Source: an uncultured Alphaproteobacteria bacterium (lineage in GTDB: Bacteria > Pseudomonadota > Alphaproteobacteria > Rs-D84). From it: a stretch of DNA of 64,000 nt. The notes below the pieces were generated by a model, which was not told the DNA's origin, made no database searches, and saw only the letters and a program-made list of their open reading frames with translations. The stretch covers positions 362 to 64,361 of the forward strand of contig CALXMR010000005.1 of the NCBI GenBank assembly GCA_944389525.1, read 5' to 3'. Shown here piece after piece: positions 37,959-64,000 of the stretch; position 1 is the first letter of the stretch, and the number at the start of each line of letters is the position of its first letter. The translations under genes were made by a program, and so were the position numbers.

Positions 37959-38059
37959 ATTTATGAGTTGGGTGTAACTGGTGCTGTTGTTACAATAATA
38001 TTTTTGTTGATTTTTTGTCCCGGGGGTTGCATAATCGGCCTGCTTTGGTTGTGAATGTC

Positions 38060-58367: not shown

Positions 58368-58396
58368 TAGTATATTGGCGGGCGGTAAACAAAGAT

Positions 58397-58424
58397 TTGA
58401 CTTTTGCGGCAATTCTTATAGAAT
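58397..58424 (+). promoter_or_regulatory. Candidate promoter (TTGACT, 16 nt spacer, TAGAAT) in the secY-rpsM spacer
   Basis: Hexamers and spacing. Confidence 0.35.
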
Positions 58425-58530
58425 AATGCGGCAGAATAAAATGCGTCACAAAGTTCAAAAATGGGGTTTTGTGATGTTTGTACCGGGCGTAATTATTACG
58501 ACCACAGTTAAATAAAAAGGAAAATGAAAA

Positions 58531-58908
58531 ATGGCACGTATAGCAGGTGTTAACATTCCGACAGAAAAGCGTATCGAAATCGCGCTGCAATACATTCATG
58601 GCATTGGTCCGGCAAAGTCGGCCCAAATTTGCAAAGCCTTGAAATTAAAAGATGGATTGCGCGCCAAGGACTTGACTGACGAAGATGTTATAAAAATTTC
58701 AAAGTATATTGAACAAAATTTCAAGGTCGAAGGTGATGTTCGCCGCGAAGTCGCGATGAATATCAAGCGGCTGCAAGATTTAAAAACCTATCGCGGGATT
58801 CGCCATCGTAACCGTTTGCCGGTTCGTGGCCAGCGCACACAGACAAATGCACGTACTCGCAAGGGTAAACGCGTTGTGGTTGCGGGATCTGCGGTCAAGG
58901 GTAAATAA
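58531..58908 (+). CDS. rpsM: 30S ribosomal protein S13
   Basis: [14 protein letters not shown]. Confidence 0.95.
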
Positions 58909-58971: not shown

Positions 58972-59355
58972 ATGGCTGTTACAAAAGCGAAAAAGAAAGT
59001 CGTAAAGAAAGTATCACACGGTATTGCCCATGTGGTCGCGACAAATAACAATACACGTATTACTATCACAGACCAATCGGGTGCCGTATTGACATGGGCA
59101 ACCGCCGGTGCAAATAATTTCAAGGGTGCAAAAAAATCAACACCATATGCCGCAACCGTTGTTGCCGATGCTGTTGGTAAAAAAGTTGCAGAAATGGGTA
59201 TGAAGACAGTTGATGTTCTGATGCGTGGTATTGGCCAGGGTCGCGAATCTGCTGTCCGTGGGTTGGCAAATGCCGGACTGATTGTACAGTCTATTACAGA
59301 TACCACACGCATCCCGCATAACGGATGCCGCCCGAAGAAAGTTCGCCGCGTGTAA
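58972..59355 (+). CDS. rpsK: 30S ribosomal protein S11
   Basis: GIAHVVATNNNTRITITD. Confidence 0.95.
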   Translation: MAVTKAKKKVVKKVSHGIAHVVATNNNTRITITDQSGAVLTWATAGANNFKGAKKSTPYAATVVADAVGKKVAEMGMKTVDVLMRGIGQGRESAVRGLANAGLIVQSITDTTRIPHNGCRPKKVRRV

Positions 59356-59363
59356 TAACAACA

Positions 59364-59388
59364 AATCCCGCAAAAGCGGGATTTTTAT
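59364..59388 (+). terminator. Rho-independent terminator immediately after rpsK (aatcccgcaaaagcgggatt plus T-run)
   Basis: Perfect hairpin followed by TTTTAT. Unusual position inside the alpha operon. Confidence 0.6.
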
Positions 59389-59423
59389 GTTCTGTGACAA
59401 ATCAAAAAAGGGAATTTTATAAA

Positions 59424-59879
59424 ATGGATGTTGCCAATAGTTTTAAGTTTCTGTCAAATATGGGTGATGTGCGGGATAATCACAAAGATATCTATAATGT
59501 TGGGTATGAATCTGGGATATATACCGTGTTTGCAAAGAATGTTTTGTTGAATGATATGCGTGGGGTTGTGAATCTGGTGAATTTAATGGCGTGTCGTGAT
59601 GTGTTTATAAAAAATGCGCGTGTATTATATGCGCCGTGTTTGGAATATGTGGAAAACATCGTTTTACCCCAGGCACGATATGTTGATTTATTTTGTTTGG
59701 GAATGGGGAATATTTATGTGCCAGATGCGAACGTGGTTCGTATATCTAATCCAAAGTTTAGCGGCACGATATTTTGTGGCAACCAGACAAATATAAAATC
59801 CATTTCGCCCGTGGCGGTTCGACGGTTTAAAGATTTTGCCACAATAAAGAATGTGATTCCGTGTTCATATTCCAGGTAA
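59424..59879 (+). CDS. Hypothetical protein (152 aa, AT-rich, Cys-containing) inserted between rpsK and rpoA
   Basis: ATG 59424 with AAAGGGA RBS. No recognisable motifs. Flanked by terminators. Confidence 0.45.
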   Translation: MDVANSFKFLSNMGDVRDNHKDIYNVGYESGIYTVFAKNVLLNDMRGVVNLVNLMACRDVFIKNARVLYAPCLEYVENIVLPQARYVDLFCLGMGNIYVPDANVVRISNPKFSGTIFCGNQTNIKSISPVAVRRFKDFATIKNVIPCSYSR

Positions 59880-59880
59880 T

Positions 59881-59910
59881 AAAAAATGCCCCATCGGGGC
59901 ATATTTTATT
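59881..59910. terminator. Bidirectional terminator (atgccccatcggggcat flanked by A and T runs)
   Basis: Perfect hairpin between convergent inserted genes. Confidence 0.6.
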
Positions 59911-60310
59911 ATCGTGCGCATGTGCCACAATGTGGATTTGGGGCATCAATATAACGGCGGGTTGAATATGTGCCGGCCGGTTTATATGTCACGACTGGTT
60001 CATATATTTGATAGTGGTCAATAACCTCGCTGTATGTTTTTACGCGCACAGGTGCCAGTTTACGGGCCATTGGTTTTTTGCAACCACGGTTAGTACGGGC
60101 AACATCAATTGACGATGCCACGCGACATGGTGATACATGGCGCGTCACACGTCCGGGTGCTACATAGTTGGTGTCAATATATTTTACTGTATCAATGGTG
60201 ATTGTTTCATATGTGTTGATGGTTTCTGTTTCTGTGTACATGCCATCAGACGCATATGCGCCAGCGCAAATAACAGATGCAAAAATTCCAGATAAAATAA
60301 TTTTTTTCAT
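59909..60310 (-). CDS. Hypothetical lipoprotein or secreted Cys-containing protein (133 aa) on the strand opposite the ribosomal operon
   Basis: Signal peptide MKKIILSGIFASVICAGAYAS (possible lipobox ICAG). AT-rich. Confidence 0.45.
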   Translation of the reverse strand: MKKIILSGIFASVICAGAYASDGMYTETETINTYETITIDTVKYIDTNYVAPGRVTRHVSPCRVASSIDVARTNRGCKKPMARKLAPVRVKTYSEVIDHYQIYEPVVTYKPAGTYSTRRYIDAPNPHCGTCAR

Positions 60311-60512
60311 CGTGTTTCCTTTGTGTTTTCTCTCCTAAGACTAGGACAATTTTTTCTGGTTGTCAACTTTTTTGTACAATGATTTTGTGCACGGCGTGTC
60401 CAGAATAATAATTTGACTTTTGGGCATTTGTGGTATAAAATTGCCGGGCGTGTTGGATAACCCACATGCAGCCGATTGGCGAAAATGATAAACTAAGCCG
60501 AAGGGGTTTTTT

Positions 60513-61541
60513 ATGATCGAAAAAAACTGGGTTACTTTGATTAAACCCAAAAAATTGAATATCAAAATTGATGAACATAATCCGAACCAGGCAACATTGG
60601 TCGCAGAACCATTGGAAAAGGGTTTTGGTTTGACATTGGGGACCGCGTTGCGCCGTGTATTGCTGTCTTCGTTGCAGGGATGTGCGCCGATTTATATCAA
60701 AATAGACGGGGTGCAACATGAATTTTCTGATATCCCAGGTGTTCGCGAGGATGTAACAGATATTATCTTGAATTTAAAAGGCGTCTATTTCAAGGCGTTG
60801 ACCGAAGGACAGCACAAGGCCGTATTAAAGGTCAAAGGGCCAGCCGTTGTGACCGCAGGGATGATTGAAACATCTGGTGGTGTCGAAGTTATGAACAAAG
60901 ATGCAGAAATCTGCACATTGGACAAGGATGCTGAATTAGATATGGAAATAACTTTGGCCACGGGTCGTGGATATGTGCCGGCGTCTGCGCATGCAGATGG
61001 ATTGCCACTGGGGGTTATTCCGGTTGATTCAATCTTTTCACCGATTTTGAATGTTGCGACATCTGTTTCGGAAACCCGCGTGGGGCAAAGCACTGATTAC
61101 GACAAGCTGGAAATGATTGTCAAGACAAACGGTTCTGTATCGCCCGAAGATGCAATTGCACTGGCGGCGCGTATCTTGACAGACCAGTTGGTTGTATTCA
61201 TTAACTTTGAAGATCCGGCGCAAATTAATGCACCAACCGAAGAAGAAAAAGCCAAAGATGCATTGCCGTTTGATCCGAAACTGTTAAAGCATGTTGATGA
61301 ATTGGAATTGTCTGTTCGTGCAAACAATTGCTTAAAGAACGACAAGATTAACTGGTTGGGCGAACTGGTTCAAAAGACCGAAGCGGATATGTTGAAAACA
61401 CCAAACTTTGGCCGCAAGTCTTTGAATGAAATCAAAGTTCAACTGGAAGCAATGGGCTTAAGTCTGGGGATGGAAGTTCCAGGTTGGCCACCGGAAAATA
61501 TTGCGGAGTTGGCAAAAAAATACGAAGACCCCTACAAATAA
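60513..61541 (+). CDS. rpoA: DNA-directed RNA polymerase alpha subunit
   Basis: 342 aa. NTD and CTD motifs ([13 protein letters not shown]). Confidence 0.95.
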
Positions 61542-61555
61542 AATTATTATAGCGT

Positions 61556-61820
61556 GTCATCTGGCGCGTTTTCCGATTGCTCATGTAGGTTAACTACACT
61601 ACGCCATCGGAAAACATCGCCATCTGGCGCACTCTAATAATTTTACAATTAAATTTTATGGACGCTTGTCGCGATTGTCGGTTCTTATGTAGGTTTACTA
61701 CACTGCGAACCGTCAATCGTTTCCAATCGTCTCATAAAATTTAATTTCTTGTCCAGGTGCGAATTTTACAATTAAATTTTATGGGCGCTTGTCGCGATTT
61801 CATAAACTTTAATTTCTTGC
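61556..61820. repeat. Repeat-rich expanded rpoA-rplQ spacer
   Basis: Direct repeats aattttacaattaaattttatgg(a/g)cgcttgtcgcgatt (61640-61677 and 61762-61799). t(c/t)atgtaggtt(a/t)actacact (61581 and 61685). ataaa(a/c)tttaatttcttg (61733 and 61802, inverted relative to the first family). catctggcgc twice. Confidence 0.55.
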
Positions 61821-61983
61821 ACTTGCGTGGTTGATGCGTATTTTATTGCTTTACAAATGCGCTGGATGTGTTAGAATGCACGGCGCAAAGCAAAGCAGGT
61901 TGCGTTACTGAAATTTATTTTGGGGCGCAATGTTATGAAAAATCCCCCGTGTCGGGGCAGAAGATTATAAAAAAGGAGTAGTC

Positions 61984-62529
61984 ATGAGACACATGAGAGC
62001 AGGTCGCACATTTAATCGCGATACTAATGCACGCAAGGCCTTGTTTATTGGGCTGGCGAAAAACTTGATTGAAAAAGAACAAATTAAAACAACCCTGCCA
62101 AAGGCAAAAGATCTGCGCAGTGTGGTCGAAAAATTGATTACCCGCGCCAAGGTTGATACCGTGGCGAATCGCCGCCTGGTGGCTAGCGAATTGGGCAATA
62201 ATTCCAGCGCAGCGGTTAAAAAATTGTTCACAGTTTTGGGCCCGCGTTATGCCAAGCGTCCAGGTGGATATACCCGTGTGTTAAAGGCTGGGTTCCGCTA
62301 TGGCGATGCCGCGCCAATGGCAATTATTGAATTGGTCGATCGTGATGAAAATGCGAAAAAGACTGTAAAGGCGGCGGCGGAAAAGCAAGAAAAAGCAACA
62401 GAAAAAGTTGCGGACGCGGCCGAGAAAACAGAAAAAGCACCGCGCGCAAAAAAGACAGCGACGGCAGATGCAGATAGTGCGGCGGCTGAAAAAAAGCCGG
62501 CAAAACGCCGTACGACATCAAAAAAATAA
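61984..62529 (+). CDS. rplQ: 50S ribosomal protein L17 with ~45-aa K/A/E-rich C-terminal extension
   Basis: [21 protein letters not shown] core. Tail ...[51 protein letters not shown]. Confidence 0.9.
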
Positions 62530-62584: not shown

Positions 62585-62665
62585 TAAGATTTGTTAGAGA
62601 CAAAAAAATCCTTTTATTAATATGATCATTTGTGATAGAATTAAATGAATGTTGAAGGGATGTTT

Positions 62666-64000
62666 ATGAAAGGATTAGCATTTTTTTGCATGATGTTGAT
62701 TGGTTTTGCATTAAACGCTGATGCTGCGGTGCCACAGCAGCGGCGTGGTGGCGGTACCACATCCCCAGTGGCATCAACAACATCAACGCGTACGGGGACA
62801 GTATCTGCACGCAGTGCAACTACCGCGCGTGGTGCAACATCTGCACGCAGTGCGGCGACCCCGGCGGTGTCTGCACGTGCGGCAACAACGGGGCGTGCAA
62901 CTGTTGATCGTGGAACTGCGTCGACAACATCTTCTGGAACATCGTCAACCACAGCGCGCAGCGCGGTTGTCGCGCGCGCGGGCGCAACACAAAAGGTTAT
63001 CGGTACTGGAACCAAGGTTGCCGCCGCCGCAGAAAATGTTATTGTCAGTGCGGAATGTCGCCAGAAATATATGGGGTGTATGGATTCTTTTTGTATGTTG
63101 GATAACGCCAGTGGTGGTAGATGTATTTGCAGTGATAAAAATGCCGAACTGAATGATGTTCTGGCACAGATTGAAGAATTGGATCAGCGCAGTTACCAGA
63201 TGGCGACATATGGTGTTGAAAGAATTGAAATGGGTGATTCTGCGGACGCAGTTATTGCCAGCGCAAACGCGGTTGCACAATCTATTATTGATGCAGATAA
63301 AGAGGAAGAAGAGGTTGAAGAGAAGAGGGGGTTAGATCTTTCGTTGTGGAGTAATCCTGATTACTTGTACGATACCGCAGATATCGATATATTTAATACT
63401 GCATTTGAAGAGCCGGTGGAAGAAGTGGAAGGTGATGACTTATATGCCGCAGCTGACGAGATTTGTGTGGCGCAGATACCAGAATGCGCGAACGAAATGT
63501 CAATGTTGAAATTGATGTATCAACAACAAATTCGTTCGGATTGTACGGCCTATGAGAATAGTTTAAAGCAACAAAAAAATGCCAGTGCACAAAAATTAGC
63601 GGCGGCGGAAACGGCATTGCGTGATGCGGCACTGGAACAATATCAAAGCGCGAATAAGTACGATTTGGGCCAATGCGTGGTTGAATTTAAGAACTGTATG
63701 ATTGACACTGGTGGCTGTGGCGACGATTTTGCCGGATGTGCATCTGTGGTGGCGTTTGATGCAACAAATACACGTGGTCGTGGCGAAGAAGCCAAAATAT
63801 ATAGAGTCAAGGGTGCAGTCACAGATATAGAAATTTCTGCATCGACGTATGATATATTAATGTCTAAAAAACCCTTGTGTGAGAGTGTGACGAAGCAATG
63901 TGTTGCCGTTGCGGACCAGGTGTGGGATACCTTTTTACGAGAAGTAGCCCCACAGGTTAAGTCGGCTGAACTGATCGCAGAAGATAATTCCAGACAAAAC
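62666..64000 (+). CDS. Secreted protein, partial (runs off window end), with ST/A-rich low-complexity N-region and Cys-rich C-region
   Basis: Hand-translated frame is open from ATG 62666 (GAAGGGA RBS) to base 64000 (445 codons). Signal peptide MKGLAFFCMMLIGFALNADA. It was not in the ORF track because no stop falls inside the window. The listed minus ORFs 62641..63015 and 62945..63280 are antisense to it. Confidence 0.55.
   Translation, partial: MKGLAFFCMMLIGFALNADAAVPQQRRGGGTTSPVASTTSTRTGTVSARSATTARGATSARSAATPAVSARAATTGRATVDRGTASTTSSGTSSTTARSAVVARAGATQKVIGTGTKVAAAAENVIVSAECRQKYMGCMDSFCMLDNASGGRCICSDKNAELNDVLAQIEELDQRSYQMATYGVERIEMGDSADAVIASANAVAQSIIDADKEEEEVEEKRGLDLSLWSNPDYLYDTADIDIFNTAFEEPVEEVEGDDLYAAADEICVAQIPECANEMSMLKLMYQQQIRSDCTAYENSLKQQKNASAQKLAAAETALRDAALEQYQSANKYDLGQCVVEFKNCMIDTGGCGDDFAGCASVVAFDATNTRGRGEEAKIYRVKGAVTDIEISASTYDILMSKKPLCESVTKQCVAVADQVWDTFLREVAPQVKSAELIAEDNSRQN

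Follow-up and report, generated by a model that had tools for sequence, protein, structure and literature searches.

A clade-wide split of the alpha operon between rpsK and rpoA in Enterousia-like gut alphaproteobacteria

What becomes of an operon when one of its inner junctions opens? The alpha operon, ordered rpsM–rpsK–rpsD–rpoA–rplQ in E. coli, is the textbook neighborhood coupling the synthesis of ribosomes with that of RNA polymerase, and alphaproteobacteria, to our knowledge, lack rpsD at this position. The rpoA–rplQ–rpsD–rpsK–rpsM cassette is among the commonest conserved neighborhoods of bacteria, being present in 656 out of >1800 genomes (PMC9514032). In the stretch analyzed here, 64,000 nt of contig CALXMR010000005.1 from an uncultured alphaproteobacterium (assembly GCA_944389525.1; hereafter the window), rpsK and rpoA are separated by 1157 nt that hold two predicted terminators, a gene in antisense orientation and a putative promoter, which is not the layout of a co-transcribed operon. 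An initial annotation had described the order as rpsK, terminator, open reading frame 1 (ORF1), two-way terminator, convergent ORF2 and rpoA, and had explained it by the new insertion of two foreign genes. We found all of these features in place (Table 1), and both the conservation of the two genes and the z scores of the hairpins support an operon that is interrupted by real genes with terminators; the question is how old the interruption is and what it consists of.

The split between rpsK and rpoA turned out to be a clade-wide, older feature. We consider it highly probable that the alpha operon was cut into separate units in the Enterousia (Rs-D84) lineage and that the freed rpsK–rpoA junction is a slot of fast turnover, which in the window holds two inherited, clade-specific genes. 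Relative to the basal state, the ORF1/ORF2 pair would be an old insertion into a site that was already permissive. Like the bacterial alpha operon, the window keeps the order rpsM–rpsK–...–rpoA–rplQ and an Alpha_RBS element at rpsM; unlike it, the operon is split physically and, by prediction, transcriptionally, with a terminator, 1.16 kb containing two unrelated genes (one of them antisense), and a promoter and leader dedicated to rpoA.

The rpsK–rpoA junction among relatives

For comparison, we used 80 species-level loci from metagenome-assembled genomes (MAGs; numbered with the prefix L) whose RpoA is 84–98% identical to that of the window, and located rpsK, rpoA, rplQ, ORF1 and ORF2 in every one of them. 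Nearly all of the loci are labeled Candidatus Enterousia or uncultured Alphaproteobacteria and come from animal and human gut sources, and the window itself originates from a Candidatus Enterousia-like gut alphaproteobacterium of the order Rs-D84. Enterousia has been placed in that order, and its genomes are mostly smaller than 1 Mb (PMC12306168). In a neighbor-joining tree of RpoA, the window and L001–L007 form one clade (bootstrap 87), and the taxa bearing the rpoA promoter described below are monophyletic in 82 of 100 bootstraps.

Gaps and terminators at the junction were counted in the 49 loci that have rpsK upstream of rpoA on the same strand. The gap between the two genes ranges there from 109 to 4279 nt, with a median of 1446 nt, and a hairpin followed by a T-run lies within 60 nt of the end of rpsK in 42 of the 49. 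Elsewhere the separation goes further: no rpsK is found within at least 3 kb upstream of rpoA in 13 loci, and the entire secY–rpsM–rpsK block is inverted and placed downstream of rplQ in 4; in related species, over 6 kb may separate the rpsK and rpoA halves, or the two may be mutually inverted. The neighboring junctions are tight, with 41–188 nt between secY and rpsM and 1–172 nt between rpsM and rpsK. Terminator-like sites number 14 in a 4.4-kb region of the locus against 4.8 ± 2.2 expected, and are not in excess in the upstream S10/spc cluster (25 versus 19.1 ± 3.8).

The other side of the junction is marked by a predicted promoter. The initial annotation had reasoned that an operon interrupted in this way would require rpoA to have a promoter of its own, and the upstream search bore this out: a site of the form TTGAC(T/A)-17-TAnAAT lies 77–109 nt before the rpoA ATG in 78 of the 80 relatives as well as in the window, at a fixed distance from a leader motif, and the species share no related DNA on its 5′ side. 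Terminator, promoter and leader are thus conserved across the clade, in contrast to the hypervariable content enclosed by them. We propose that, with rpoA independent of read-through from rpsK, the insertion, inversion and exchange of DNA at the junction would be harmless to expression.

Only the two most basal loci, L080 and L047, have the short and uninterrupted spacer of co-transcribed genes: their gaps are 128 and 199 nt and contain neither terminator nor promoter, and the 16-nt motif of the rpoA leader is kept. In L055, L029 and L011, a terminator and a promoter are found within 109–204 nt and no gene lies between; in L055, the terminator, the –35 and –10 elements, the leader and the Shine–Dalgarno sequence are all accommodated in 109 nt. 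The split would have come before the insertions.

The contents of the slot differ between lineages and bear no relation to each other. Secreted Cys-rich proteins of large size (one with ephrin-receptor-like repeats) are among them, as are an ankyrin-repeat protein, an alpha/beta hydrolase and ClpX (L018) and, in addition, genes of mobile type: a large serine recombinase (L036:2781-4418), a phage-type N6/N4 DNA methylase (L050:1177-2643), a VirB11/T2SSE ATPase (L041:2856-3815) and a PcfJ-like protein (L032:3215-4780). The latter suggest that integrative elements use the junction in these four lineages. Combined with the fact that the junction is an inversion breakpoint in four species, they could mean that it is a target of site-specific integration or recombination, similar to an attachment (att) site, and that ORF1 and ORF2 are remnants of a mobile element. 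We regard this as unlikely. Most of what the slot contains is ordinary, being secreted proteins or housekeeping genes (ClpX, for example), and no mobile-type genes are found in the window or its closest relatives: the rpsK–rpoA interval of the window has no integrase, transposase or recombinase, a repeat search around the insert gave short chance repeats and no meaningful flanking direct or inverted repeats, and a tRNA search placed the sole tRNA of the window at 38059, with none near the insert. Furthermore, the orientation of ORF2 varies, as does the end of the slot at which it lies, and repeated local rearrangement would account for this better than one att site.

Table 1. Features of the window from the rpsM leader to rplQ, with the evidence for each (positions in the window; a dot marks a feature of both strands)
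Feature	Position	Strand	Evidence or remark
Alpha_RBS leader (S4 operator type), overlapping the start of rpsM	58457..58563	+	Rfam RF00140, 41.2 bits vs gathering score 38, E 3.5e-07
rpsM (S13)	58531..58908	+	Pfam Ribosomal_S13, 3.1e-30
rpsK (S11), final ribosomal gene of the upstream unit	58972..59355	+	Pfam Ribosomal_S11, 3.9e-38
Intrinsic terminator-like hairpin and T-run 3′ of rpsK	59363..59388	+	–14.8 kcal/mol, z –5.1 vs shuffles
ORF1, 151-aa cytoplasmic protein, predicted beta-solenoid, clade-restricted orphan family	59424..59879	+	Homologue alignment, AlphaFold2
Bidirectional terminator-like hairpin common to convergent ORF1 and ORF2	59886..59902	.	–15.4/–15.3 kcal/mol, z –3.8/–3.3 (two strands)
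ORF2, 133-aa exported protein (Sec signal, cleavage site AYA↓SD)	59909..60310	–	85 homologous clusters, conserved signal peptidase I site
Putative rpoA promoter TTGACT-17-TAAAAT	60413..60441	+	10/12 consensus matches; best promoter-like site just upstream of rpoA
GC-rich segment, potential 5′-proximal hairpin of the predicted rpoA transcript	60448..60469	+	Sequence variable, hairpin potential kept in most species
rpoA leader stem-loop	60472..60505	+	Invariant 16-nt loop GAAAATGATAAACTAA (60481-60496), covarying stem of 3-8 bp
rpoA (RNA polymerase alpha)	60513..61541	+	Pfam RNA_pol_A_bac, RNA_pol_L, RNA_pol_A_CTD
Two tandem ~100-nt hairpin elements (61542-61648, 61649-61745) right after the rpoA stop	61542..61745	+	Partial third copy at ~61775-61815
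Promoter-like TTTACA-16-TAGAAT	61850-61877	+	Precedes the rplQ leader
rplQ structured leader: two helices, GUCUC-A-rich linker, AAUCCC, Shine–Dalgarno	61901..61986	+	Covariance model R1
rplQ (L17)	61984..62529	+	Pfam Ribosomal_L17, 4.3e-35, residues 24-118 of 181

The two genes in the slot

ORF1 was placed correctly by the initial annotation, its 152 codons being 151 amino acids plus a stop. A longer reading of 184 aa from 59325 is an artefact, as the homologues begin at an aligned Met or Val. The protein had no match in Pfam, NCBIfam, PHROG or PADLOC, including no Pfam or NCBIfam profile of the known beta-solenoid families (leucine-rich repeat, LRR; pentapeptide; hexapeptide; CARP), a sequence-profile search of the PDB stayed at chance level (best E 0.093), and the family has 13 representatives among 1.84 billion proteins. 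The AlphaFold2 model consists of stacked beta-strands (predicted local distance difference test, pLDDT, 88; predicted template modeling score, pTM, 0.83) and is that of a small predicted beta-solenoid. A Foldseek search with it returned nothing significant (best PDB TM-score 0.45, E 0.49), the top entries all being solenoids: LRR, the CAP C-terminal beta-helix (TM 0.45), hexapeptide proteins and FNIP.

The gene starts 36 nt past the end of the terminator T-run at 59388 and has the Shine–Dalgarno sequence AAGGGA. No credible promoter was found upstream of it, the only –35/–10 candidates placing the start of transcription within the ORF. ORF1 is therefore probably expressed weakly, from transcripts that read through the rpsK terminator, and the terminator itself is probably leaky, because ORF1 comes after it without a promoter of its own.

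The position of ORF1 is shared with relatives. It directly follows rpsK in L001, L081/L082 and L085, and probably in L084, where the upstream gene is a 35-aa fragment; in all of these it is followed by a convergent gene of ~135 aa, which is a confirmed ORF2 homologue only in L001 and L081. The synteny extends to ORF1 relatives of only 33–39% identity, and the rpsK–ORF1 spacer is 54–68 nt where measured, for homologues down to ~33% identity. An ORF1-like gene adjoins ORF2 also in L033, though divergent from it. Within the 81 sequences searched, ORF1 was found in 3 (the window, L001 and L033), and in addition in a few metagenome contigs.

The sequence of ORF1 is far less conserved than its place. 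The proteins of the window and L001 (L001:4898-5353) are 48% identical, while RpoA is 98% and RpsK 100% identical between the two; RpsK is likewise 100% identical to that of L081. The synonymous divergence (dS) of ORF1 from L001 is 1.57, about four times the ~0.36 of the genes on either side, which suggests an old allele or the exchange or replacement of alleles by recombination within the clade. The ratio of nonsynonymous to synonymous divergence (dN/dS) is 0.27–0.29 in comparisons with L001 and L081, and the nonsynonymous evolution of ORF1 and ORF2 is 10–30 times faster than that of the neighboring genes.

ORF2 has 85 homologous clusters, none of which carries a Pfam domain or an informative name, and these share 13 invariant columns, a conserved core PVRVKT(H/Y)TEVIDHYQ(V/I)YxPVxxYxPxG and a CxxC at the C-terminus. 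Its dN/dS is 0.12–0.21. The initial annotation had called the product lipoprotein-like, a label that did not hold: Cys15 is preceded by S-V-I, and S-V-I-C does not fit a lipobox, the homologues do not conserve this Cys, and the signal peptidase I site A-x-A↓SDG is conserved across the family. By these marks ORF2 appears to encode an exported protein and not a lipoprotein. Searches of Pfam, NCBIfam, PHROG and PADLOC gave no usable match for it and a sequence-profile search of the PDB only chance-level ones; the sole NCBIfam match in the searches with the two proteins, VPA0252_fam, was rejected as it reached 19.5 bits against a cutoff of 100 and covered the signal peptide only. The AlphaFold2 model (pLDDT 61, pTM 0.17) is disordered beyond the signal helix and shows no confident fold.

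ORF2 is more widespread than ORF1. A hidden Markov model of the family matched in 35 of the 80 loci, always upstream of rpoA and in either orientation, and the gene lies between rpsK and rpoA in all 28 of the 28 loci where both ends are visible. In the clade of the window, it stands beside rpoA and is divergent from it; elsewhere it is co-oriented and beside rpsK or rpoA.

The steadfastness of these positions raises the possibility that one or both genes are functional members of the operon, ORF1 being, for example, a factor associated with the ribosome or RNA polymerase and ORF2 being co-regulated with rpoA through the divergent control region. The near-constant distance of ORF1 from rpsK, the persistence of ORF2 beside rpoA or rpsK in 35 species despite inversions, and the purifying selection on both genes are all in favor, and beta-solenoid proteins include mimics of nucleic acids, such as the pentapeptide-repeat proteins. 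On the other hand, ORF1 is confined to the few sequences listed above and ORF2 is missing in 45 of the 80 loci, and this patchy presence indicates that neither is needed for the function of rpoA or the ribosome. ORF2 is predicted to be exported, both genes change much faster than their neighbors, and the model of ORF1 has no significant structural match. Membership in the operon is improbable in our judgment, and both ORFs appear to be ordinary orphans that are specific to the clade and under purifying selection.

Recent horizontal insertion of ORF1 and ORF2 as foreign DNA with their own terminators, as first suggested, is less probable still. Its best arguments are the absence of both proteins from known families, the high dS of ORF1, which could reflect the replacement of an allele by recombination, and base composition: the initial annotation had considered both ORFs AT-rich, and this is true of ORF1, whose GC content of 0.386 is ~4 standard deviations below that of the 23 large ORFs of the window (0.464 ± 0.018), and not of ORF2 (0.435), which is within their range. 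Against it, the same genes occupy the same place in several relatives. The initial annotation had itself named close relatives carrying the two genes here as the observation that would speak for an ancestral feature, and this is largely what the comparison of junctions revealed, with the same arrangement in L001, L081/L082, L084 and L085 and ORF2 upstream of rpoA in 35 of the 80 loci. The named sources of the database homologues of both ORFs are all uncultured alphaproteobacterium or 'bacterium'. As the synteny is shared with relatives and flanking repeats, a recombinase and a nearby tRNA were not found, the pair is best seen as inherited and not as a recent arrival. That the ORFs are spurious and the interval a long noncoding spacer is barely conceivable: neither has an annotated family and the ORF2 model has a low pLDDT, but dN/dS is well under 1 while dS is saturating, 13 residues are invariant across the 85 clusters of ORF2, the ORF1 model has a pLDDT of 88, and the starts, Shine–Dalgarno sequences and signal peptide are conserved.

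Promoters, terminators and leaders of the separate units

The first of the proposed units, rpsM–rpsK, would be headed by the S4-type Alpha_RBS leader and end at the intrinsic terminator after rpsK. The hairpin of the latter (59363-59384; 9 bp, 5 of them GC) begins 8 nt past the end of rpsK and is followed by TTTTT up to 59388. Alpha_RBS scored above the gathering threshold also in 4 of 12 relatives scanned (L001, L004, L011 and L017). As rpsD is missing from the alpha operon of this alphaproteobacterium, S4 would have to act in trans on the element at rpsM. Upstream of rpsM, many alphaproteobacteria have adk between secY and rpsM; in the window, this interval (58368-58530) contains no adk, just a 163-nt spacer with the leader.

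Read-through transcription of ORF1 would come to a halt at the second hairpin, whose 7-bp stem (5 GC) is flanked by an A-run and a T-run, one to each side, and which thus reads as a terminator on both strands. It is spanned by an inverted repeat (I2, 59877-59911) of 94% complementarity. ORF2 would be transcribed from the 202-nt spacer that separates it divergently from rpoA, away from rpoA and toward this common hairpin.

The second unit would start from the strong sigma-70 promoter ~100 nt before rpoA, giving a transcript with a conserved stem-loop leader. The GC-rich segment that follows the –10 element is absent from the short-leader species L050, L051, L055 and L056; a role as discriminator or RNA stabilizer is speculation. 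Further down, each of the 80 loci has a single copy of the 16-mer GAAAATRATAAACTAA, in every case just upstream of the rpoA ATG. As RNA, this loop reads GAAAAURAUAAACUAA, and the 3′ arm of the stem enclosing it runs into the rpoA Shine–Dalgarno sequence AAGGGG (60501-60506). A reading of the motif as a mini-ORF, ATG-ATA-AAC-TAA, was ruled out because ATA replaces ATG in about half of the species.

The stem varies in sequence and retains its pairing. Its three core pairs are formed in 100% of the sequences, with 9 double changes; one pair appears as GC, GU, AU or UA and another as CG, UG or UA. In most species the stem reaches 5–8 pairs, an example being CUCCAUA-AGU with ACUAUGGAG in L080. As RNAalifold recovered only 3 pairs from the MAFFT alignment of the leader, we resorted to alignments anchored on the motif. 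There, 79.9% of the cells of a seven-pair stem were paired, compared with 76.0 ± 1.1% after shuffling (0 of 500 shuffles), and the covariation score was 0.309 versus 0.244 in shuffles; registers slid along the alignment were at most 51% paired, and swapping the 3′ flanks between species weakened the stems (z –4.4). A scan of the rpsK–rplQ region at E ≤ 1 turned up Alpha_RBS and otherwise noise, with no Rfam match to the leader or its loop. Scanning metagenomes for the 16-nt motif returned 120 loci, of which 116 were chance matches without rpoA and 3 had the motif directly upstream of rpoA, all of these Enterousia-like; the scan gave no evidence of the motif outside the clade.

Judged by its sequence and its position beside the Shine–Dalgarno sequence, the stem-loop appears to have the architecture of a translational operator, and this leader is the most promising lead of the analysis. 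A tentative extension, which we hold to be possible and rather less than even in likelihood, is that the 16-nt loop and stem form an undescribed operator for RNA polymerase alpha, whose ligand could be alpha itself, L17 or some other RNA-binding protein of high abundance; together with the noncanonical rplQ leader, it would substitute in Rs-D84 for the control of the alpha operon through S4, and this autonomy would have let the junction become a hypervariable slot. We know of no described leader that belongs to rpoA itself where rpsD is missing; those published for S4 stand before rpsD or rpsM.

The gene rplQ would be expressed behind a structured leader of its own and, in many species, also from its own promoter. 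The rpoA–rplQ spacer is 442 nt in the window and 91–633 nt in the relatives. The covariance model of the rplQ leader, R1, matched once per locus in all 80 sources searched, with 30.7–84.1 bits; in the alignment, which was fitted to the model, 96.7% of the cells were paired versus 87.7 ± 0.7% and covariation was 0.349 versus 0.183 in shuffles (0 of 500). The spacer gave only noise and no Rfam family match at E ≤ 10, inclusion of the published L17 leader in Rfam 15 being unconfirmed. A ribosomal-protein leader for L17 has been published from Actinobacteria and Proteobacteria (Eckert & Weinberg 2020, PMC7247131). The rplQ leader of the window has the same place and likewise a 5′ hairpin, with a second, GC hairpin after it; unlike it, the published motif is defined by a conserved GGUACCUGAUACGGCC loop in its 3′ hairpin, and assignment to that motif was rejected as this loop was not found in 61542-61983, even when 3 mismatches were allowed. 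The leader may be a divergent or a new L17 leader. More generally, the rpoA and rplQ leaders resemble those of ribosomal proteins in being structured, located immediately 5′ of the Shine–Dalgarno sequence and built from covarying stems.

The remainder of the spacer is largely taken up by the tandem hairpin elements. The two complete copies have minimum free energies of –44 and –42.4 kcal/mol (z about –9), and their core ATGTAGGTNNACTACAC occurs within the 64-kb window solely in the rpoA–rplQ spacer; 30 of the 83 loci have it, in each case after rpoA and on the plus strand. Relatives have 0–3 copies, which explains much of the range of spacer lengths. The elements are similar to repetitive extragenic palindromic (REP) sequences, miniature inverted-repeat transposable elements (MITEs) and Rickettsia palindromic elements in being ~100 nt long imperfect hairpins in tandem whose copy number varies by species, and differ from them in not being dispersed in the 64 kb and in having one orientation. 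They could be REP/MITE-like repeats or a stabilizer of the 3′ untranslated region.

L17 carries a Lys/Ala/Glu-rich C-terminal extension of ~60 residues past the Pfam domain. Beyond rplQ, positions 62645-64000 encode the N-terminal >450 aa of a large Cys-rich and Thr/Ala/Arg-rich protein with a signal peptide, in DNA with a local GC content of up to 0.60, and the gene continues past the end of the window. Homologues with 45–63% identity are found immediately upstream of rpoA in L023, L035, L069 and L072-L074, so that this Cys-rich family lies before the rpoA–rplQ unit in some species and after it in others.

Strength and meaning of the split

Several points weigh against a clade-wide split followed by turnover of the slot. 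The short-gap species could be secondary deletions, and the single-protein neighbor-joining tree of RpoA does not settle the deep branching of the species, its crown group appearing in 14 of 100 bootstraps; the order of split first and insertions later, as well as the number of independent gains and losses, are thus not proven. The relatives are all MAGs, and while long contigs and the concordant arrangements of sister species oppose misassembly, they do not exclude it everywhere. The promoter, the efficiency of the terminators and the read-through into ORF1 are predictions from DNA sequence. The leader stem of rpoA is short, with an unremarkable free energy (z –0.7 for the whole 73-nt leader), and covariation beyond the three core pairs is modest in sequences that are phylogenetically related.

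Breaks in this part of the genome have precedents. The secE-...-alpha cluster is occasionally changed by insertion, deletion or rearrangement, and junctions once opened may become fully disconnected in descendants (PMC8046335). The Rs-D84 clade is similar in that an opened junction is seen drifting apart. The events detailed in that study lie between operons (e.g., rpoBC–str and str–S10) in Gammaproteobacteria and Bacilli, whereas the break in Rs-D84 is inside the alpha operon and forms a recurring hypervariable slot over a clade of genus to order level. What is new is a break within the alpha operon that is fixed across a clade with a dedicated promoter and leader and is followed by hypervariability.

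In a clade of uncultured, genome-reduced gut alphaproteobacteria, rpoA has become separate from the ribosomal genes by way of the predicted terminator and promoter and a leader that is strictly conserved, and the split junction provides a natural experiment on what holds operons together. It yields a candidate cis-regulatory RNA ahead of rpoA and another ahead of rplQ, neither of which is matched in Rfam, and the rpsK–rpoA slot is a practical marker locus for variation at strain and species level in Enterousia. If the tentative operator of rpoA is real, its autonomy would explain how a conserved junction turned into a slot for genes of surface and secreted proteins in a genome-reduced gut symbiont.

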